This document shows, piece after piece, positions 16,587-41,851 of a stretch of DNA of 64,000 nucleotides. How positions within the stretch are numbered: position 1 is the first letter of the stretch; the number at the start of each line of letters is the position of its first letter. A model generated the notes under the pieces. That model made no database searches. It was not told the origin of the DNA and was given only the letters and a program-made list of their open reading frames with translations. A program made the translations under genes and the position numbers. Source of the stretch: Paraspadella gotoi (lineage: Eukaryota; Animalia; Chaetognatha); assembly GCA_051294375.1 (NCBI GenBank), contig CM119263.1, forward strand, positions 1,753,664 through 1,817,663. Direction: 5' to 3'.

Positions 16587-19017
16587 TTATTTCATCTCGA
16601 TCTCCCACGAAAAGGTTTTTCGTCGCGAGGACGAAGGGCGATCGTCGCTGATCCAATCCGCGTCGTTCGCCGTTGGACGCGATTCGTCGTAGGATCTTTC
16701 TGCATTGTTGTTGTTGTTGATTTCCTCGCTGCTTTTGATGCTTGGGCGGCGGTTGTGGTCAATGTGGTTGTGGTCAATGTGGTTGTGGTCGCAGTTGTCG
16801 TCCTCGAAGACTGTTGTCGACGAAGAGTAACGCGACGAACTTCGCGACGAATCTCTCGGCGAATCGCCCCAAGTCTCGATGGAAGATTCGTCGAGATCCA
16901 AAGACTCATCGACGAACTTCTCGGCGTCCTCTCGGCGTCCTCTCGGCGTCCTCTCGGCGCCCTCTCGCGGCGTCGACGTCAGTGACAACGTCCTCAACCT
17001 CCTTCTCCGCGGCGTCGACCGTCGACCGGCGTCCTCGGAGAATCGTCTCGAAGACGCGATGTCGTCGCCAGCCGCGGCTGAGCCGCCCGGGCTGCTGAGG
17101 CTGCGCGAGTGCTTCTCCTCTTCCGACGACAGACTCTCGAAGGAAAAAGTAGAGTTACGTAGTTTAAAGTCGAGTTCTTCGTTTCGCCGCGAGAGGCGCA
17201 GTTTCTCTTCCGATTCGCGCTTCAGTTTTTTCCGCAGCTGCTGCAGTTCTCGCTGCATCGATCTCTCTTTCTCGATCTTATCGTTGAGCTGTGACCTCGC
17301 CTCTTCCAGCTGCTGATTGGACTTTTCGACATTGACGCTCGCGCTGCTGATCTCCGCGGCGGCTTTCTCCGCTTTGGCCTGCAGAGCCTCGATCCTCGAT
17401 CGCTGCTCACGAACTTCACCATTTTTTAAACTGAGGACAAAGTTCAAGGACTCGACTTCCTGGGTGAGATGGCAGCGGCTGCCTGCGGTGCAGACAGAGG
17501 ATGAGGAAGTGTTGGAGGTGTTGAAATGATCCTCAGGTGGTGGCGACTGAGTGGCAACATCTTTACGGCCTTTTTGAAAACAATTTTTACACTTAAAATA
17601 ATTAGATTCTTTAAAATAATAATTGCATACAATACCAAGTCCAACAAATTTAGTCTCCAACAAACTTTTCTCATAAAGAAGTGCTTGTAATCTATGACAA
17701 ATGATCTCACATTTTTCGTTTGATTCCTTCAACTCTGCCTCAACCATTTTCAGCCTCTCATCCTTGCTCTCCTCTCCATCCTTTCTCATCGCCTCTCGAC
17801 AATGAGCTTCGGCCAACTCGTTTCTCAGTAAGTCGACCTGTCTCCGTACCAATGCGCCCTCTCGCTTCTCCAGCTCGAGATCGCGTCTAATTTGCAAGTT
17901 CTTCCCTTGCTCAGTCATTATTTGACCCAAGATTCGGTCCAAATCGATGACGCATTTGCCCATCTCTGCTTCGTTGATCCCTATCTCTTCCTCAAGATCA
18001 AAAATGTGTTGATTCTTATCAAGGAGATCATCCTCAAGACGCTGGAGTTGTTCATTTTTATCGGCGACTTCTATCTGAAATCTTTCGACTTGATCGTCTC
18101 TGTCTTGAATCTTGCTGGCGGCATCATCGAGAGAGCGATCCCGTTCTTTAATCTTTTCTTCCATTTGCTTTAAAAGATCATTTTTATCATCGATCATATG
18201 AAATGCTTCATCCAGATGAAGATCTTTTACTTTGACTTCCTCCCTCAACTCAATTGCCTCTCGTTCCAAATCGACGAGTCGCTCGTCTTTTTTACGCATC
18301 TCGACCTCAGATTTTTTGATCGCTTCCGCATCACTTCGCTTGGTTTCTCTCGCTCTCATCGCCACTCGGCGCAGCAACATTCCGAGCAGCAGCGATGACG
18401 CTGTTGCCAACGTCGCTTCCTTGATCGCCCGCGTCTTTGAGACCTTTGCTTTCTGCAATCTCGACTCTGCCAATTCCAGTTGAGTCGTTCGATCAATCAA
18501 TTTTGCTTCGGTATTTTCAAACTTATTGGTTAAGCAGCTAATATTCTTGTTGGTTTCTTGCAATTGCGACGCCTGTTTCGCGAGCAGAGTGTCTTTCTCT
18601 TGCAGTTGCTCCGTTTGCAATTGCAATTGCGCCGTCAATTGTTCGATCTTTGCATCTAATTCCTCCGCTCGACGCCACAAAGAATCAGATTCTTTGACAA
18701 GTTTTTCCATCTCATTCGGCTGCAGTTGTTGATGTAGTTGCTGTGGTTGATGTAGTTGATTCTCTTGCTGAATCGAATGACGAACATCGCCATTGTGGAT
18801 CCCGTTTATGGATGACAAATGATTGCTTCCTTTTTCGCCTTTCGACGTTGTTTCGCCCTTAGATTTGCCCTTAGATTCGACTTTAGATTTGCCCTTAGAT
18901 TCGCCCTTGGATTCGCCCTTCATTTGGTTGTGGAGTACATTTCGATTAAATATTGATTTTTTTTCTCTTTTAGTTTTCGCAGCTGATTCGTTTTCTGTCG
19001 ATCCGTCATCGGCGAGC
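16587..19017 (-). CDS. Large terminal exon encoding a long coiled-coil protein (~780-810 aa)
   Basis: Uninterrupted ORF rich in E/K/L/Q heptads with a Ser/Arg-rich tail. Acceptor TTTTTCGTCAG| at 19018/19017 (phase 2); first in-exon ATG at 18923. Confidence 0.85.
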
Positions 19018-19098
19018 CTGACGAAAAATAAACGACATTTAAACTTAAAGGATAAGATTAATTCTATCTCCCCCATTAATACAATATTATTAATTCTG

Positions 19099-19236
<138 letters not shown>

Positions 19237-20054
19237 GAGAGACAGGTCCAAGCCTGATTTCAGTTACTCACGAATTAGTGTCCAAAGATTGTTTTTATAC
19301 CGACACATTACCCTCAGTAAAAAATAATGTATCGGTCATTTCTTTTTATATGGATTTAAAATCGTGAAATAAAGCATAATTTTCCTTCGACGGTTGTATT
19401 ACCCCAACATCCTGTTTAGTGTTTAATATCCAGTTTATTCACGATTAAGCAATAAATTTCATTTCGGAGCAGTAATTGAATCACCGGTTCTTTTTTTAAA
19501 GAAAAATTGTAACTCTTTTTTTCCCCAACCCTTATTGAAAGTGTAGCGATTTACTGTGCGGGTTTTATCAGTAAAGGTTTTAGACAGGGAATTGTCACAA
19601 TTTCGTCAATTCACTTGCCTCAAGAATAAACGTTTAGTTATTTTTAAAAATGGACAAATAATAACTTGGGATATAATTTATGGGTTTATAGGATTAATTA
19701 CCACAATAAAAATACAATAAAATGGATTTAGATTTAAAATGAAAGTAGAAATCTTAACGAATTAGATTTAGTTACAAAGAGTACCAATGTTTTTTTATAG
19801 CTTTTTTGAGAATATACTATATTCCGTCGATCGATGAAAAATCTCGAGAATTAAATTTCAAATTGATGCAACTCGATCTTGCCAGCTGCTGCTGTCGTTG
19901 CCGCAGCTGCTGTTGTTACCGCAGCAGCTGCGGTTGCTGTTGATGTATTAAGTATTTATTTTGAATTATTTCAATATGAACGACCTAACAAAAAAGTATT
20001 AAAGTTTAAGTCTATCAAAAAATAGAATACGATATATAAAATTATATATTCCAT

Positions 20055-22012: not shown

Positions 22013-22564
22013 TATTTGAGAATGATCCGAAAGTTAGATTCCAGGAAGAACGGGAAAAAAGAACTTTCTTAATGATTTTCTGAAGAAAGGTTTTGTTCAG
22101 AAAATGTTTATTTTGATATATGTATCATCCCGAACCACAACAACAACAACGACGACAACAACAACATCGGATTCTGTCACAAAGTTTTAGAGCCATCACT
22201 TCTAAAACTGAGTTTGTTGCCAAAAGGCAAACACCATTTAGAGAGTTCACTTTTCTTTCACGATCATTCATTGTGACTGTGTTCAGTGTTCAGTGTTCAC
22301 GTGAATCACGCGTAACCTCGTTTTCTTTTTACGGTCAATCGAATTGATTATCATTGGCCATACTATTTGCATCCTTCATTGCTTCGTAATATTCTTTTTT
22401 CTTGGGTGCTAGGTTTTATTTAGTTTCATATTGCTTTCTTTGTAGTAGTATTTCATTTATATATACATTATCTCCCCAATGAATGGTTATCAAATCTCTT
22501 ATTTTCTTACGATTTGTAAGTAAAGGGAACTCAGAGCACGCACTCTCTCTCTCTCTCTCTCTCT

Positions 22565-22700
22565 TCGGATCAGGCTGTAACACCGTGTTACAGGCGGATC
22601 AAGCGCCCCGTCCCTCTTAACTGGTAGGCGACCACCTTTGAGTGAGTAGGCGAATGACTTGCCTCCGGCACCAATGGCCGCTGATGAACGGTTGGTGGAT
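22565..22700 (-). mobile_element. tRNA-derived SINE-like family 1 copy
   Basis: Matches 55975-56095 on the same strand. Confidence 0.7.
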
Positions 22701-22771
22701 GGATGTATGGGAAAAGTAAAAGAATATTTAGCCCTTGTTGACCCTGATGTGTTGAACTGAGAGCTCAGTGG

Positions 22772-23844: not shown

Positions 23845-30609
<6,765 letters not shown>

Positions 30610-31105: not shown

Positions 31106-31773
31106 ATGAGGCGCCGATTGTTTCGTATTTTTATTTTTCTTCTCGGCATCACCATTTTCATTTGTTCGTTCTCGCCTTTGAAGAACCTTTTGTTCGACGA
31201 AAACCACTACCGCCGCCTTTCGAGACTCGAGAGAAGATTGGCCAACGAGGAGAAACTGGAAAACAAAAGGCTGGAATCCAAGTCGACCGGCTACGAAGTT
31301 TTTCAAGTTGGCTGCCGCATTCCCGCCTTTGATCCGTTCGATCCCACACTGAGAGGCATCGTATCAACTGGTTTGGTCGCTGTATTTTATTTAGTATTTA
31401 ATGCTGCTTTATATTAGTATTTTATTTAGTATTTAATGCTGTTTTATATTAGTATTTTATTTAGTATTTAATGCCGTTTTATATTTGAGTTAGAAATTTA
31501 GTATCAATTGAAAAGATATAACGCACTGGACATAGTTTGTGTTTATTTTAACGCAAAAAGACATAGAGAGAAGCGACAAACTAAATTTTCTAATATGAAT
31601 AAATGGATGTATAAATAGATGAATAAATATATAAATGAATAAACATGTCAATAAATAGAAGAAAAAATAGACGTAATAAAAACAATAAAAGTCTAAGCTT
31701 ATTGTTTATATATTATTTGCTCAAAGCTCATTCTAACAATAAGCCTCTCAACTTCCCCTCTCTCTATTTCCCG

Positions 31774-31804
<31 letters not shown>

Positions 31805-34800
31805 CTTCTTCTTCTTCTTCTTCTTCTTCGTCCCCAGCGCGGCGCCAAGCCCGGTGCTCGGGCCCGCAGCACTTCGTCGACGCCCTCCCTCTCCGCGGTG
31901 CCATCATAATTCGACGCGAAAGGGCCGAAGATTTAAGGATAGTACTTTGCCGAAAGGAAAATTCGCGGTGCCAGGGAGACGATCCCCGGTGCCGAAAGGA
32001 AATTTTGCGGCGCGGGGAAGAAAACGACTCGACCTGGTGGTGGAAAGATGAGGGAGAAGTAAGGATCGGAATCGAGGTAAGTTTAGAGAGAAATATATTA
32101 TTTAAAAAACTTTAATATATCACAATATGATGTAATATAAGAGAGTCTTGATTGAAAGCTTGCAGGGACCTGCTATGTCATTATCTTGTAAGATGAAGAC
32201 CTTAAACCACCAAAGCCTGTCCAAAGTCAGTGGCATAATAGCTTATTTATTAAATGAATAGATAATTTTTATATTGGTTGTACCAATTTCATATCACAAT
32301 ATAATATAATATGGTCCTTTTGATAAAATTTTTATTCAAACAGTAACAGTTGAACATATATGTCACTTCATTGATAGGGAAGTCAAGTAGTCTAAGTAAA
32401 TTAACTAGGCTTTGAAGGAGCAATGATTAATAATTAATTGCAGAGTCTCGCCATAGTATTATCTTGTTAGATTGATGGAAGCCTTTACCTACAATTGTCT
32501 GTCCGAATCCCAAATTCAAGGGCAAGACAGTGAAGACACTTCATTTATTGAATTAATAGATAATTTTATTGTGCCGGTACAATGTAAATATTTCACAAAA
32601 GATTAAGATTTGTAACGAACTCTTTTTCCATTCATTCTTATCCTAATTACGCCACACGAGACGCCCGTCGAGGCCGATTTCATCCGCGTGACGTGCGTCA
32701 ACGTCAACGCCACACGATTCGTCGATCACGTGACTTTGGGACATCGCGACGCCGACGAAGCGAAAAAGAAGCGATGGTTGAGGAGAAGGAAACGGACAGA
32801 TGGAGAGACGGACGGATTCGTGGACGGACCGACGGACATCCATCATCAGAAAGACAGACTGCACGCCAGCGTTTTGTCCGATTCGTCGAAACGGGCAGGC
32901 CCCGCCCGACCGTCCCCGCCCGACTCGCCCGCCGACTCTCCGGCCTTCGACGTTCACCTTATCGGCATCGACTCAGTCTCTCGGCAAAACTTCATCCGGC
33001 AATTTCCGGCGACCCGTCGGCTGTTGCTCGAGGATCTCGGCGCCATAGAGTTCTACGGGTAGGGGAATGAGTTGACGTTGTTGTCGTTGTTTTTGTTGTT
33101 GTTGTCACGATCCTTCTCATCCTGCTCTTCCCTCTCCGGGTTGTTGTTCTTAGTTGCGCCGCGAATTAATCGGGAAGAAACTCTATGAGACACATTTCGG
33201 TCGGTCTGTCGGTCGGTCGGTCGGTCCGTTTGGTATGTCTTTCCGTCCGTCTGTCCCACTTACGTTAAAGATGCTCATAACTCGCCGATAGTTAGTTGCT
33301 CATTTGTTAAGACAGAAAAAAACCTCAAATCTAAGCGACTACTAGCGCCGCCTGAGGAAATCATAAAACTATAAAGAATAAAAGACGGGTTAAGAAAGTG
33401 ACTGCGGCGCAACACAACATTTGAATTTCCGTTCTTGTTTCTGGTTGTGAGTGTTGCGGTCGTTGTCTTTAACCCCTCCCCCGCATCAGATACAACAAAG
33501 TGGCGGACAACACTCTTCCCAACTTAATAACGGTTTTGACGGGAAAGTTCTTGGAGGATCTCCCTTGGAACGAGAGGATGCGGCGAAGGCCCTTTGACTA
33601 TTATCCGTTTGTGTGGAAAAACTATTCAAAAAACGGGTGAAATGATTTATGAATAAATAAGGTTATAATTAGATATATATAAAAAATAGGTATGAATTAG
33701 TCAATGAATAAATAAATACTTATATATAATTAAATGAATATAAATAAATAAAGAGATTAAATAAAAAAAGATTCAATTTTAACCACTCAATCAATGATTG
33801 AATGACGCTTAATGATTCTATCTATTAGTAATCCAATCCATCAACTCTTTTCATTAATCCATTAGTCAATCAATCAATCAATCAACCAATCAATCCTTTC
33901 CCACAGTTACTGGACGATCTTCGGCGAGGAAGCGTCGCCGCTCCACACGTTCAATTTCAAAAAAGCCGGTTTTTGGCGCAGACCGACCGATCATTACTAC
34001 AGGCCCTTCGCTTTGGCTTTGGAGGAGAGCGGCCTTAAGAATGACGAAGGGAAATGCTTCGGCGAAAAATTACAGGTTACCGATTACATTTTATGACTTA
34101 AGTCACGAACAGAATATCAAAGAAAAAATAAAAATTTAAATATTTCCATTTATTTGAAAATGAAATGATTTATTCAGTGAGGAAATGGTCATTCAACGTC
34201 GCGTTTAAAAGCACCACCATTCAGAATTACACTTCCCGGATCAACATTTTTTTTGTCTGAGGATTTAAAAAATTTTTGTGAACTTTATTATTAACATCAT
34301 AAGTTTAAATTTTCATTCGGGTTATTAAAAATTGTATTTGATAAGAAAATTTGAAAAACATAAATAAGTAACAAACTGTATCATAGGTTAAAATTAGGTA
34401 TGAATTTGATATAATTTAATATGAAAAACAAAAATAAGTAAAAAACTGTATCATAGGTTAAAATTAGGTATAAAATTGCTTTCATGCAAAATAATATTTT
34501 CGAGTGATGAAACAATTTAAAAAACAAATTCAAAATAACATTTTTCAAATAAGAGACAATGATTTTAACTTGATATTATTTGTTATTTTTTATTGCAAGG
34601 CCTCATTTTTAGATTAACGAGATTTTCTCCTCCTCGTTCAGTCCGAGTGGCTCTTCAACTGGTTCCTCAATTGCCTTCGCTCCCACAAACGTGATCCAGT
34701 TTTCTCGCTCATCTGGACGAACCAGTTGACGCACGGGGATTTGAACGGAGCCGGACTCGCCGACGGCCCCACCGAGAGGCTCTTTCGTGCCTTGAAGGAA

Positions 34801-34820
34801 GGTGAAGGACGGGGAGAGAG

Positions 34821-34874
<54 letters not shown>

Positions 34875-36950
34875 TTATTGCAATGACCGGTTTCAATTTT
34901 TTGGATTTTCTTTGTTTCGAAGTCACGTTTGAATTTTGGTTTTAAATAATCAGTCAAATTTAATGGTTTATTAGTTTAGCTTGAAAAGTTATTATAATAG
35001 TTATGATATAGTTATGATAATGTATAAACAGCATTCATCGTTGAGGGAATTTCCTGGGTATTTAATCAGTTAGAGGGCACAAAACGATTCCATGAGGGAA
35101 ATATAAAAATACCTTGCTGTGTGAATGTTCGTCAAACGTTACAAATGTGACAAACGTGACAGCTATCGCCGAGAGAAATATTTAATGCTTGCTTACTTTA
35201 TCATAAACCGGTTTTAATTCTTTCCTCCAATATTTTTAATTTTAATGAAAATCACGTTGCCTTAGCCTCGTGACTTTGTCCAAAGAGGTAGAACAAAAAA
35301 AGCCGCGAAAGGAATTGACTTATACATAAATCTATTTTCAAATTTTCAAATAATAATTTCTATTTCTCTGATATTCTATTAGTATTGAGGATTTTACCGT
35401 AACGCCGTGAGCGAGCTAGTGTTTTCTGACTTGCTATTTATTTATAGAGATTCGAAGAATGTAAATTTAGTAATATTTATTGTAGTAGACATAACATGAG
35501 CGTGAGACGTGAAGCAAGTAGAAGGGAGACTATTTCTAAAGATACAAAAAAAAATAACTTATTAAAAATAGTCAACTTTAAGCTTAACCATAAAATTACA
35601 AAATATCGTTTTAAATGCTTACCGACTGTCACGAATCATTGGTAACTTATCCTCTTAGTTTTAGGTAAGCACATCTCTTTTATATCTTTGGTTAAGGCAC
35701 AATCATAAGGACTAACCAATCAGAGAGCGACGTTTAAAATACTTGATCAATCAGATACTTCGTAAGCAACAAAAATACGAATTCAATAATAAAAAGGGCA
35801 TCAAACAACCGAGAGACTATCTCGTAACAAATAAAAATTTAACAATTAGATTCCAATATTTTGAAGTCATACCATTACAGGCAAGATCAAATTTAAAAAT
35901 CAATATCAGTTTTATTTTATTTTTGACTACAACCAAGTTTTTTTTCGCTCGCTCGACGTTTTTTTCCGCGACCACTGGTTATTAAAAAGACGAGGCTTCC
36001 GCTCGAAATTCACTTTCTGCCGACGCGATTCCGTTTTACTTTTAAACTCATTCGACACAAAAGGAAATCGATCCTCTACGGAATAAATTGCTATAAGAAG
36101 TTCACAATGTTGAAAATTCTGGCAATCACGCTCATCGCTCTCGCGATTTACGGTAAATGATGATTTTTGATTTTTGATTCGGCGATTCCATTTCCACGGA
36201 GATCGCCCGAGTCTCCGATCCGATTTGCTTTTGGTGGCTTGATACTCCTGCGATGGTATGTTGAGTCTGAACTTGAGAGAGAATAAAACTCGTTTTTTGT
36301 AAACTCAATATTAAAAGGCAACGCAACGAAAGTCTTTTCACTATGATTGTTGTAAGGTGTAAAATGAGGATTGTGGACGAACCATTACATTCGAGAATTT
36401 TTTTCACAGGATTTACTTCGGTCGACGCTTCACCGAGGAAAAGAAGGAGTTTGGAGGAAAAAGTTTTCGATAAGAGAAGAATGGAAGGTAATTGACTTTC
36501 ACAACTAATAATTAAACTATTCAGTATGGAATTGGCAGTATGCAATTGGCATGCAAAAACCTACTTCATAATTCCATTCACAGACCCTTCTTCTATGCAT
36601 CGCGGTTTCGAGAAAACATTTTTCCAAAAGAAGAGCAAAGCCGAAGGTACAAGATATTTATACTAATTGCGTTAATAAGAAAATCTGAGGAGAGTTTATC
36701 GTATGTATTCTTCTTATGATAACTTGCTTTTTATTTTTTAATACTCATTTACAAAAAAATAACTATTAAAACTATGGAGGTATTATTTGACATGATAAGT
36801 ATTCTAGGATATTAATTACTAATGAGTAACGACTATACTTGTCTTTAATCCATTGATTGGTAATTGTTTCTTTTGATAATGTGATTCGCTCATGAAAATA
36901 AATGAAATTCTGAATGTTTGAAAACATTTATATTATTAATGTTGTGATTG

Positions 36951-37026
<76 letters not shown>

Positions 37027-37085
37027 CATTATTATCATTATCATTATTATCATTATTATCATTATTATTTTTATTATTTTTATTA

Positions 37086-37161
<76 letters not shown>

Positions 37162-40031
37162 CATAATTATTGACAACTAAATAGAAAACGGTTACCCACC
37201 TGAAGGACATCTCGAGAGTCTCGCGAAGATCCTGGCTTCGCATCCCGAGACGAGAGAACTCGTTGAAGAGCTCCTCGAAGAAAAGAAGGAAGAGGGATCT
37301 GGATCGGGAGACAACGACCAAGGACAAAGCGACCAAGGACAAAACGACCAAGGACAAAACGACCAGGAACTACTATCGTGGATCCAATACATTTATGGAA
37401 GTAAGTGTAAAAACTTTAAGAAATATGTCGCAAATAGGTTTGCCCACTTTATCCTTATTTTCCCAGAAAGCCCCTTTTCATTTTTAAATTCGAAATTAGG
37501 TTAACTTTTTTTAATTAAATATTAGGTAGAAGGTTAGAGTTATGGATTAGGTTAAGGATTAAAGTTAGGGATTAGGGTTTAATGTTAAAGGTTATGGATA
37601 GAAATTAGGGATAAAGCTTTAGGAAAAGGAGTACCAAAGTATTTCTTTCTCTCTCTCTCTCGCAGATAATCGAACGGAAATTAAAGATTTCTTTCCTTTC
37701 TGCGAAAACAAGGACGAAAAATACACTGAGCTTCTTTGCGCCTCCCAGACGGGCTGGTGGTTCTGCAGGGAGCGTTGTCTCGCCTTTTACATTTCGAACA
37801 CAGACCTGACTAAATGCGAGAACAAATGGAACGATGATCAATGCCAGACGGCGGTAGCAAAGGGCCTTTGCGGTATGTTCAACGATGAATCTGCCAATTG
37901 CGCCGCCAGCTGCTTTCATTACCGATGGCACAGGTCTTGCAACGAGCACGACTATTGGTACATGGAACCGATTTCTTTTTTCTTTTAGAATGAACAAAAA
38001 AAGTCTTTAATTTGGCAGCCTTAATTTTTTTTTGCTGAAAAGTAAAAGAATAAAATTCTATTTATCGTAACGGCGTAAATTTGTTTTTCATTTTAACAAT
38101 GTATATACATTAGAATCTGTCACTCTTGCCTTTTGATAAAAACATTTTTTTGATGCCCTAATCGGTATAAAGGTTGAAAAAGAAAAACCTAAGTTGTAGT
38201 TCATTCAAATAGCGATGTCGCCGGCGATTCACGCACGAGTCGCAGGTGTGGTTCTAGTTGGTTGGCGACTTCGCCATGGCGATATCGCCAGGGCCCTGGC
38301 GATGTCGCCAGTACCCCCAGTGGCGACCTCGCCAGTGATAAAAGTAGCGAATATAATGAAAAGCGCGAGTTAAAGAAGAGGCTCGCAGCTAACACGGGGA
38401 TGAACACATCACCCACGGGCTCCTCTCCCAACCCTAACCCTAAACAAGACCTCCCATTAAACCCTTACGCTAACCGCCTTTGACACGTCAACCACGGGCC
38501 CCTCCCCCAACCCTAACCCTAAACCAGGCCTCCCATTCAACTCTGTTCCTCTCCCCTAACCCGGGTCTGGGCCTCCTGTACATCTCGGTGCCTCAACCCT
38601 AACCCTAACCGCCTTCGATGCATCAACAACGGGCCCCTCCCCAAAGGAAGCCCGTGTTAGAGTTAGGGAAGGTATTGGCGAGGGACATTAGGGATTAGGG
38701 TTGAGGCACGAAGATGTACTGGAGGCCTAGGTCTGGTTTAGAGTTAGGGTTGGGAGAAAGACCCGTGGGTTATATATCGAAGGCGGTTAGGGTTAGGGTT
38801 GAGGTACGGAGATGTACGGGAGGCCGAGCCTGGGTTAGGGTTAGGGGAGAGGCAGGGAGTTGAACGGGAGGCTCAGTTTAGGGTTAGGGTTGGGGAAGGG
38901 GCCCATGGTTAATGCATCGAAGGCGGTTAGGGTTAGGATTGAGGCACGGAGATGTATGGGAGGCCCAGGCCCGGGTTAGGGTTAGGGGAGAGGCACAGAG
39001 CTGAAACGGTAGGCCCGGTTTAGGGTTAGGGTTAGGGTTGGGGGAGGGGCCCGTGGTTGATGTGTCGAAGGCGGTTAGGGTTAGGGTTTAATGGGAGGTC
39101 TGGTTTAGGGTTAGGGTTGGGAGAGGAGCCCGTGGGTGATGTGTTCATCCCCGTGTTAGCTGCGAGCCTCTCCTTTAACTACTTTTTGCTACTTTTATCA
39201 CTAGCGAGGTCGCCAGTGGGGGTACTGGCGACATCGCCAGGGCCATGGCAATATCACCATGGCGAAATCGCCAACCAACTAGAGCCATACTTTCATGATT
39301 TTAAATATCGAATGATTGCGTATTTGAAACCATAACAACGAATCAGTTGAATTCTCCCGCTTTTTAGTTAATTTTTCTAAATAATCAATCATACAATGCT
39401 TTTAATAAATGTTTGACAATATTTCTCGTGTTTTTATTACAGTTGTTAGACAATAGTTAGAAACACTCTTACTATCTAGGAAAAGAAGTATATCACATAA
39501 TTGTTGAGAAGTTCATTTATTCAAAAAATATGGGTAAAGCATTTTCAAAATTGGGTGTGCCCTCCCTCGACATTGACTACTGCCTAAATTCGGCTGGGTT
39601 AATTAGTTTGATTACAGTGATGAACAATCGAGGGACACCTCGACGCTTCGGTGACCATGTTCTTCTCCGATCAATGCCCCCCCTCGATCACTCAACCCCT
39701 CCGTTATACCGCCCACTCTCCCCCCCCCCGGCCAGAGGGACACCTCGACGCTTCGGTGACCATCTTCTTCTCCGATCACGGAATTCGTTTCGGAAGAATT
39801 CGCGACGTCTTCGTCGGAAAACTCGAGGAGCGACTTCCCTTCCTCTTCATCCTTCTCCCAGAGAGGCTCAAGGCACGAAGAGAGATTATAAAGTAAAATT
39901 CGTTACGTAAAAAGGCGCTATCGCCTAAATCTCCGTATTTTTTCGGAGATCCAATTAGAAACGAGAAAGAAGAAAAGGCGAAGATAAGGAGGAGGAAGAG
40001 GAGGAGGAGTTAATTTTTAGTCTCGGAAAAA

Positions 40032-40071
<40 letters not shown>

Positions 40072-41851
40072 ATGCTAGTGCGGAGTACAATAAGTATTCC
40101 CCGATCTAATACTAAGGGAGTGGTCTTTTCATACAATTGAAACATTCTTTGAAATATTTTCCACTTCATTGATAGGGAAGCCAGGTACTCTGGGAGTGAA
40201 TGAACGGGACTGTGAGAGAGTCTTGATTGAAAGCTTGCAGGGACCTGCTATGTAATTATCTTGTAAGAGTGATGGAGGCCTTAAACCAGCAAAGCCTGTC
40301 CAAAGTCAGGGGCAAGATAGCTTATTTATTAAATGAATGGATAATTTTTATATTGGTTGTACCAATTTCATAAACATTTAAATATAAATAATTAATTCCT
40401 GATGTCAGATGACGAGACCAGACCTTCACGAAAATCTCATCGAAAACTCTAGGAAACTCGTCACCGGATTCGACGTCCACGAGACGTTGCTGCATTTACT
40501 GCGGCTGCAGCACCAGCCGCTGATGCGTCACTCGCCGCAGCCGCTTGACGAGGCTGATGAAGGAAAAGCCAATGGGTGCGTGTGAATACAAAAATGGTGT
40601 TAGATTTTACGAAGCACGTCACACGTGGACGAAAAATCTTGACGATTGAAATAAAAAGCAAAGAGCTTTAAAAACTATCAAATATTTTTCTTAAAATAAA
40701 GTTATTAATATTATAATTCATCCTATAGTTCCATATCTCATTTTATAAATTTTGTTTACTGTAAATCAAGCTAAATAAAAAAAAATTGGGCACAATTTAT
40801 TGCCTCTTTACTTTTCATTATATTTTCTTTACTTTTATTCGCTTCTTTCATCCCCGTTTCCTTTCACCCCCTGACACCCCCTTCATTCGCTAGCCATCCC
40901 TCAAACACCCCGACCAACCCCTCCAACACTCTGTCCACATCTTCCAACTCCTTCTTCCGCCACTCCCTCCTCGCACGCATCCCAGCCAATCGCACGTGCG
41001 CCGACGCGCTCATCCTTCCTCATTGGTGCACGTGTCAGTTGGAGCGGGCCGTCAACGCCAGCGGCGGGGTGGTTAGGGTGGTCGCCCAGTATCTCGTCAA
41101 TAAGGTAGGGGAAGTGAAAGATTGGGAGAAGAAAGGAGGGACAGAATGAGTAGATACAGGATTTGGACTTAAAACTTACCCCCCCCCTAGGAAAAATTAC
41201 TAATTACCTCGATAATTTGTATTTAATGATATATCTGAGGAATTTCCTTTTATCAATCATTTGATTGGTCATTTAAATAATAATAATAAAAGAAGAAAGA
41301 AAGAAAGAAAACGAACAAGCAGGAAAGAAAGAAAGAAATAAAGCTAAAAAAAGAAGAAAAGAAAGCGAGAGAAAAAGAAAGAGATACAAAAATATTAAAA
41401 AATACAGATAAGAAAGTATATAAATCAACTAATTTTAAATCCTCTTCAGATCAACTCGCTCCTCTTCCCCCACCCCTCCTCTTCCTCCTCCTCCCCCTGC
41501 GCCCGCCTCCGCCTCGTTCGCGTCACCAGCGCCTACTCCTCTTCCCCGAGCGAAAAGCTCCTCTCCTTCCGTCGCTCCAGCAAAGAGGTCCTCAACCGTC
41601 ACGTGATCTACGGACGACCCGTTCCGGGCGTCGTCGACTTTTTGGTGACGGTGAGGACGGCGCCGGGGGGCGGGACCTTCGAGGGGACCGTCAGAGTTTG
41701 GGCGGCGCGGAGTGGTGGCGGTGGCGGTGGCGGAGCAGCACCGGAAGGGAAGAAGATGACGCTGGAGGGCGGGATAAGTCGAATCGACGTCTACGGAAAC
41801 TCGTCGTCCTGCGTCGATGAGAATTTGCAAAAATATTGTTTTTGCAAATGA
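31106..41851 (+). CDS. DUF229-family type II membrane protein, paralog 2 (764 aa, 10 exons)
   Basis: Exons 31106-31370, 31838-32076, 32661-33058, 33490-33636, 33907-34075, 34642-34801, 39736-39872, 40409-40575, 40894-41104, 41450-41851 join into one frame. Motifs IGIDSVSRQNFIRQFP, YNKVADNT, PTDHYYRPF, FFSDHGIRFG, IPANRTC..HWCTC, QKYCFC. Intron 39873-40408 is GC-AG. Confidence 0.88.
32140..32293 (+). mobile_element. Partial copy of repeat family 2; a more degenerate copy follows at ~32365-32590
   Basis: gagtcttgattgaaagcttgcagggacc...atattggttgtaccaatttcata. Confidence 0.75.
35716..36015 (+). promoter_or_regulatory. Putative core promoter of the nested ShK-like gene
   Basis: CCAAT box (accaatcag ~35716), TATA-like TATTAAAA at 35980, and Inr-like TCACTT at 36010-36015, with the Inr A 32 nt after the TATA start. 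ATG lies at 36107. Confidence 0.45.
36107..37988 (+). CDS. Nested secreted prepro-protein with ShK-like cysteine-rich domains (241 aa, 5 exons)
   Basis: Exons 36107-36152, 36410-36487, 36584-36646, 37185-37400, 37666-37988; all introns GT-AG, phase 1. Signal peptide MLKILAITLIALAIYGFTSVDA, RKRR and KRR sites, acidic spacer (EEGSGSG, DQGQN repeats), then CENKDEKYTELLCASQTGWWFCRERC and CENKWNDDQCQTAVAKGLCGMFNDESANCAASCFHYRWHRSC. AATAAA at 38049. Confidence 0.85.
36950..37165. repeat. (TAT)n microsatellite in intron 3 of the nested gene
   Basis: Long TAT run with TCA/TTT variants. Confidence 0.95.
38246..39290. mobile_element. Foldback/MITE-like element with long inverted arms and internal (CCCTAA)/(TTAGGG)-rich subrepeats
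   Basis: 38246-~38500 is the reverse complement of ~39050-39290 (gtgtggttctagttggttggcga / tcgccaaccaactagagccatac). The left interior is C-strand and the right interior is G-strand telomere-like repeat. Confidence 0.85.
40069..40372 (+). mobile_element. Most complete copy of repeat family 2, inside the GC-AG intron of DUF229 paralog 2
   Basis: Starts after (TA)n with ttgatgctagtgcggagtac and ends in the hairpin attggttgtaccaat-ttcata. Other copies at 43857-43980(-), 47342-47543, 48355-48585, 48868-49105, 63960-63995. Confidence 0.8.

Follow-up and report, generated by a model that had tools for sequence, protein, structure and literature searches.

A five-exon gene for a predicted secreted precursor, nested on the host strand in a DUF229 intron of Paraspadella gotoi

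The genome of the chaetognath Paraspadella gotoi (GenBank assembly GCA_051294375.1) was analysed in a window of 64,000 nucleotides (nt) on contig CM119263.1 (positions 1,753,664 to 1,817,663 of the forward strand; all coordinates below count from the first letter of the window). Two DUF229 genes lie in tandem in this stretch of animal DNA, and the downstream one is the host of a further gene, which lies wholly within its sixth intron and, in the assembly as given, on the host strand (+). We consider it fairly probable that this five-exon gene for a predicted secreted precursor makes its own spliced RNA from within an intron of an intact DUF229 gene and that the host still joins its exon 6 to exon 7. 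The nested gene is most likely an independent secreted-precursor gene in a host that is backed by a paralog.

The nested gene and its transcript

The sequence model of the nested gene consists of exons at 36107-36152, 36410-36487, 36584-36646, 37185-37400 and 37666-37988, with an open frame of 241 amino acids (aa) and four phase-1 GT-AG introns. Nine public runs contain the stretch, and four of them were used for the RNA comparison, namely three DNA runs and X9, which is RNA by the tool's guess; this single probable RNA run consists of assembled contigs, which drop rare forms and do not show transcript starts. In X9 all four nested introns are seen as GT..AG joints, for which each of the three DNA runs gives depth 0. 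A spliced nested mRNA, joined from the gene's own first coding exon, exists in X9. The initial annotation, made from the letters alone, had described a complete gene on the host strand in intron 6 and had named spliced RNA over its five exons as a check, and the joints bear out both. The five exons stood as well, but the 241-aa frame did not: intron 3 ends at 37205 in X9, the acceptor at 37206 being used and not that at 37185, which gives a protein of 234 aa. The nested introns are thus 257, 96, 559 and 265 nt long. Their phase, which had been given as phase 1 throughout like that of the host intron, agreed with the rebuilt exons.

The exons, all on the (+) strand, divide the precursor into distinct parts. 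Exon 1 (36107..36152), placed by the frame and the X9 joint 36152>36410, holds the ATG and the hydrophobic core of the predicted signal peptide. The frame and X9 joints also place exons 2 and 3, both of them 1-1 exons. Exon 2 (36410..36487) carries the end of the signal peptide and the basic sites RKRR and KRR, and the DNA of exon 3 (36584..36646) resembles that of exon 2 with a score reached by 0 of 2000 base shuffles, both exons being purine-rich; for their protein similarity, the score was reached by 161 of 2000 shuffles. By their sequence, exons 2 and 3 (36410-36646) have the appearance of copies that arose by duplication within the gene. Exon 4 (37206..37400), set by the joints 36646>37206 and 37400>37666, encodes an acidic pro-region with 15-nt repeats (D11). 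The coding part of exon 5 (37666..37988), based on the frame and the X9 contig 37666-38213, encodes ten cysteines, as four and six, and the stop codon.

The same contig defines a 3' untranslated stretch (37989..38213, +) with AATAAA at 38049. Because the contig passes this hexamer by 160 nt and extends to 38213, AATAAA is not a hard stop for all molecules; the gene's own AATAAA, as originally claimed, is present, but it is not the end of every transcript. TATA- and initiator (Inr)-like words are present in the sequence and mark a candidate promoter only.

The host gene and splicing across intron 6

The host DUF229 gene has ten exons at 31106-41851 (+) and, in the rebuilt exons, a 764-aa frame whose single stop is terminal. 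Exons 1-6 (31106..34801, +, at 31106-31370, 31838-32076, 32661-33058, 33490-33636, 33907-34075 and 34642-34801) are based on Pfam, the rebuilt frame and alignment, and encode an N-terminal hydrophobic anchor and the first conserved motifs; a contig of X9 lies on exon 3. Exons 7-10 (39736..41851, +, at 39736-39872, 40409-40575, 40894-41104 and 41450-41851) are based on Pfam, the rebuilt frame and an X9 contig. Intron 6 (34802..39735, +, 4934 nt, phase 1, GT-AG), with the nested gene inside, is defined by the rebuilt frame and by Pfam continuity. The DUF229 profile (PF02995) matches five host exons in order (profile positions 108-163, 212-271, 274-326, 327-374 and 425-476), and it is unbroken over intron 6, running from 274-326 on exon 6 to 327-374 on exon 7; the intron therefore cuts one continuous domain. 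Alignment with the paralog and two outside relatives places conserved motifs upstream of the intron on exons 3, 4 and 6 and downstream of it on exons 7 and 8, and the frame on both sides of intron 6 keeps these motifs and has no stops and no frameshifts.

The tandem paralog (23845..30609, +, 683 aa), which lies upstream of the host and is an intact model resting on Pfam and alignment, is 37% identical to the host protein. Its counterpart of intron 6, previously given as 208 bp, was found at 28224-28431 with a length of 208 nt and phase 1. Because the paralog has the same intron in a short form, host intron 6 is ancestral. A Sulfatase profile co-matches on the paralog and the relatives, and from these co-matches the host is presumed to be an enzyme of sulfatase/phosphatase type. 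At 34720-34745, the conserved His of a host motif is followed by Gly; the corresponding residue is Asp or Glu in the paralog and in both outside relatives. This substitution may mark a changed activity.

The second half of the host gene is spliced in frame in X9, from the end of exon 7 through exons 8-10, and this includes the GC-AG intron 7. The evidence is a 765-nt contig whose pieces (39762-39872, 40893-41104 and 41524-41725) have offsets that match the lengths of host exons 7-10 (111+167=278; 75=75). The splicing was read from the piece coordinates, as the joints are not in the printed table, and two listings of this contig were taken as one because their length and depth agree. Each DUF229 paralog has one GC-AG intron, in different places: host intron 7 (39873-40408), backed by the X9 contig, and paralog intron 10 (29622-30401), required for the open frame. 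No intron of the paralog corresponds to host intron 7 in position.

Because both halves of the host are undamaged although a foldback of 1 kb, a 44-nt duplication and other repeats have accumulated in intron 6, it is likely that a full-length host mRNA is made. The host acceptor at 39736 ranks first among the 306 AG sites of intron 6, and the nested acceptors rank 2, 13, 17 and 18. We suggest that the four short inner introns would be removed first from the host pre-mRNA, each through its own nearby donor. This would consume the four nested acceptors and leave the host donor at 34802 with the host acceptor at 39736 alone, and the remaining 3.8 kb would then be removed as one intron. Because the short inner introns use up their acceptors, the host probably skips the nested gene, and phase would play no role in such a route. 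During host transcription the polymerase would pass the nested poly(A) site, which is apparently leaky. Insertion of the nested gene into this old intron probably followed the DUF229 duplication and may be tolerated because the paralog adjoins and because host and nested gene are likely active in different cells. In cells that do express the nested gene, transcriptional interference probably lowers the output of the host, as has been reported for human pairs (PMC3192792; PMC11694760). Fifty Drosophila hosts with intron-bearing same-strand nested genes have been tabulated, and such hosts are less often essential (PMC3814207). Removal of introns from inside an intron has been described in dystrophin and EPB41 (PMC4394429).

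Within intron 6, repeats lie on both sides of the nested gene. A (GA)n tract (34824..34871, +) stands just behind the host donor and so belongs to host-initiated RNA only. Between the nested gene and the host acceptor there is a high-copy foldback (palindromic) element (38246..39290, without strand), recognized by its inverted arms I1 and I2 and by very high summed depth in the DNA runs. It consists of about 1 kb of nested inverted repeats with 20 TTAGGG and 7 CCCTAA words, and 82% of its bases are paired in the predicted fold; no target duplication was found at 38246-39290. The 3' end of the nested gene may run into this element. A 44-nt copy of the head of host exon 7 (39630..39673, +; repeat D15), with no in-frame AG before it, sits 105 nt upstream of the real exon 7 start and is covered by DNA contigs of other samples. 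Outside intron 6, host intron 2 (32140-32393) and host intron 7 (40113-40372) share a very high-copy element (repeats D6, D12 and D16), which has the highest summed depth in the runs.

Several observations weigh against skipping of the nested gene by the host. The junction 34801>39736 is not among the X9 contigs, none of which reaches either end of intron 6, and all RNA support comes from one probable RNA run. The 765-nt host contig starts 26 nt inside exon 7, and read-through from the nested gene could be its source. The host donor agrees with 5 of 9 consensus positions and does not surpass the nested donors (5-7 of 9), and the acceptor ranking used a crude matrix from 18 other acceptors that favours C-rich tracts. 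The order of splicing is what we infer. Among the listed contigs of the three DNA runs, the GA tract and the foldback are unbridged by independent DNA contigs.

Other explanations of the layout

It is possible that the nested gene acts as a natural gene trap, in which host RNA splices into nested exon 2 and ends at the nested poly(A) site, RNA of the C-half comes from nested read-through, and the enzyme is lost or nearly lost and covered by the paralog. Four same-strand acceptors and a terminal exon precede the host acceptor, the paralog is intact, and nested genes cause exonization and early polyadenylation in their hosts (PMC3192792; PMC11694760). An unspliced X9 contig at 39393-39693 and the contig beyond 38049 are also compatible with read-through. 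However, the host halves have stayed free of stops and frameshifts and have kept their motifs despite the foldback, repeats and duplication of the intron, and the host acceptor is the top-scoring AG in it; we regard the trap as unlikely.

The initial annotation had gone further and proposed four in-frame products and a switch between them. The host enzyme and the free precursor hold as gene models, but the two hybrids are in frame on paper only. One would join the host N-half to nested exons 2-5 (34801>36410) and end at the nested stop in the last exon, and the other would join the nested signal exon to the host C-half (36152>39736) from a phase-1 donor and a phase-1 acceptor. The phase 1 of all five introns keeps these hybrids in frame and is in favour of a regulated splice or poly(A) switch that makes useful products of them, an explanation to which we give little credence. 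The layout itself is real, but the switch has ordinary explanations. The phase match is unremarkable because the phase of the host intron, which the paralog shares, predates the insertion; phase-1 introns are 4 of the 19 in the two DUF229 models, so that an insertion would meet a phase-1 intron roughly one time in five. Nor do the four nested phases count as separate draws, given the enrichment of phase 1 behind signal peptides and the likeness of exons 2 and 3 at the DNA level. Such enrichment has been described beside signal-peptide cleavage sites and in 1-1 exon shuffling (PMC7259759). Judged from the sequence, there appears to be not much special in the match between host and nested gene, and no switch would be required. 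The proposed membrane-anchored chimera of a DUF229 N-half and ShK is in frame, but because RKRR stands nine residues past its join it would likely be cut by a convertase and would not remain a membrane-anchored ShK. Neither half-hybrid is likely to be an enzyme, because the conserved DUF229 motifs are split across intron 6 and either half would be missing some of the presumed active site.

Splicing of exon 6 in frame to nested exon 2 could also mean that the host promoter feeds the nested precursor, which we consider distinctly doubtful. If this were true, the host membrane anchor would replace the signal peptide and the RKRR behind the join would release the same secreted peptides. A single splicing decision would then determine whether a cell makes the enzyme or an additional supply of the secreted product, and what began as a gene trap would have come to serve regulation. 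In a narrow literature search, no paper on in-frame chimeric transcripts of nested and host genes was found.

An assembly error, by which a nested gene from elsewhere was joined in at the GA tract on its left side and at the foldback on its right, is in our view very unlikely. The listed contigs of the three DNA runs are indeed interrupted at three places, namely the GA tract, a repeat near 35410-35866 and the foldback, and the window has six N gaps, as in a short-read scaffold. However, no N occurs from 1487 to 45402, and two coordinated misjoins would be needed, leaving and re-entering the same intron. The DNA contigs 39215-39658 and 39409-39979 link the right arm of the foldback to the acceptor region and exon 7, and on the other side the X9 contig reaches 38213, which is 33 nt short of the left arm. 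A last possibility, which seems highly improbable to us, is that the host skips the nested exons by RNA structure. In this case the GA tract behind the host donor would pair with the TC tract of the nested last-exon acceptor, loop out exons 2-4 and hide that acceptor in host-initiated RNA only. Of the five acceptors in the intron, this one gives the strongest predicted duplex (-42.9 kcal/mol); among 23 acceptors, 37666 is alone in having a (TC)7 tract, and nested transcripts are without the GA tract. Nevertheless, GA tracts occur in 20% of 1.3-kb windows here, two of 18 acceptors outside the intron score alike (-49.1 and -39.5), and a GA tract also follows the donor of paralog intron 3, which contains no pairing partner for it. 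The duplex was, moreover, found after the fact.

The nested product and comparable loci

The nested protein begins with a hydrophobic stretch (predicted signal peptide) and further has four basic sites, an acidic spacer and ten cysteines, which form one group of four and one of six. The basic sites flank two short peptides in the region of exons 2-3, as in a peptide-hormone precursor. The product is predicted to be cut at the basic sites, which would yield short peptides and a disulfide-rich C-terminal part of no assigned family. In the 234-aa model, the six-cysteine module comprises C178, C187, C196, C206, C210 and C219, with the spacing x8, x8, x9, x3, x8, and the further four cysteines lie at 140-165.

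This product had been called ShK-like, and part of that claim stood. The six-cysteine module is present, and its protein language-model neighbours are all ShK clusters (Atlas; 0.85-0.87, 128-149 shared features), which is a lead only. However, Pfam gave no family for any of the four nested pieces at E<=10, PF01549 included, and HMMER found no relative among 1.84 billion representatives, only one spurious repeat protein. The single-sequence structure models were poor, with a predicted local distance difference test (pLDDT) of 43 and 55.5, and fold searches with them gave no fold match and are uninformative. ShK and ShKT domains close with the spacing C-x3-C-x2-C, which is absent from the nested module, whose last cysteine lies eight residues on. 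The lysine of the ShK dyad stands between C3 and C4, and there is no lysine between C196 and C206, the C3-C4 loop of the nested protein. The ShK fold has the bonds C1-C6, C2-C4 and C3-C5, and the Lys-Tyr dyad belongs to ShK-type potassium-channel blockers, many ShKT domains being without it (PMC6409789). The likeness to the secreted ShK/ShKT proteins (PF01549; PMC6409789) thus consists of a predicted signal peptide, a pro-region and a six-cysteine module, and the differences are those of matches, closing spacing and loop lysine. We suggest an orphan secreted precursor with a possibly ShK-derived module, and not a ShK toxin.

Elsewhere in the window, a multi-exon gene at 53770-56970 (-) encodes a predicted secreted protein, which we take by eye to resemble the CAP/SCP family; three of its single-exon frames gave no Pfam match. 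Its first four clear exons are separated by three introns that read as phase 0, and therefore not every secreted gene here is phase 1. An uninterrupted frame of 890 codons at 16587-19259 (-) encodes a long coiled-coil-like protein, with a weak Crescentin rod match below the cut-off and nothing else. By eye, 22560-22760 (+) and 55690-56080 (-) are related copies of a short repeated element, and the second place resembles two facing copies.

The locus belongs to a known but uncommon kind, that of same-strand nested genes, and stands at its rare, intron-rich end. In Drosophila melanogaster, 71% of nested genes are antisense, 73% of the same-strand ones are single-exon, and the median among the multi-exon ones is one intron (PMC3814207; PMC5174743); in mammals, the strand bias is slight once all biotypes are counted (PMC11694760). 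The intron-bearing same-strand nested genes of Drosophila (Lee and Chang 2013, PMC3814207; Assis 2016, PMC5174743) resemble the present case in that a complete, fast-evolving gene lies in a host-strand intron and the host is likely dispensable, here with a tandem paralog. They differ in that the gene described here has four introns in a host intron of just 4.9 kb. In human tandem pairs with interference, such as TXNDC12/KTI12 (Kaer et al. 2011, PMC3192792), and in imprinted loci (PMC11694760), an inner gene in the same direction can likewise shorten host transcripts or pull in exons. Interference is demonstrated there, whereas here it is presumed, and in-frame hybrids do not figure in the extracts of those descriptions. 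The intrasplicing in dystrophin intron 7 and EPB41 (PMC4394429) is similar in that inner introns are removed within a larger intron, as proposed for the host; however, the inner sites there belong to the same gene, whereas the step suggested here would act on introns that belong to another gene.

Selection against mis-splicing is thought to remove same-strand nested genes that have several introns, and the splicing of their hosts has been little studied. Annotation pipelines are likely to fuse or split the host and nested gene described here. The P. gotoi locus is compact, with an RNA-confirmed five-exon passenger, itself an orphan secreted precursor, and an empty paralog adjoining as a built-in control. 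It offers a clear test of whether inner introns are removed first or exons are trapped.

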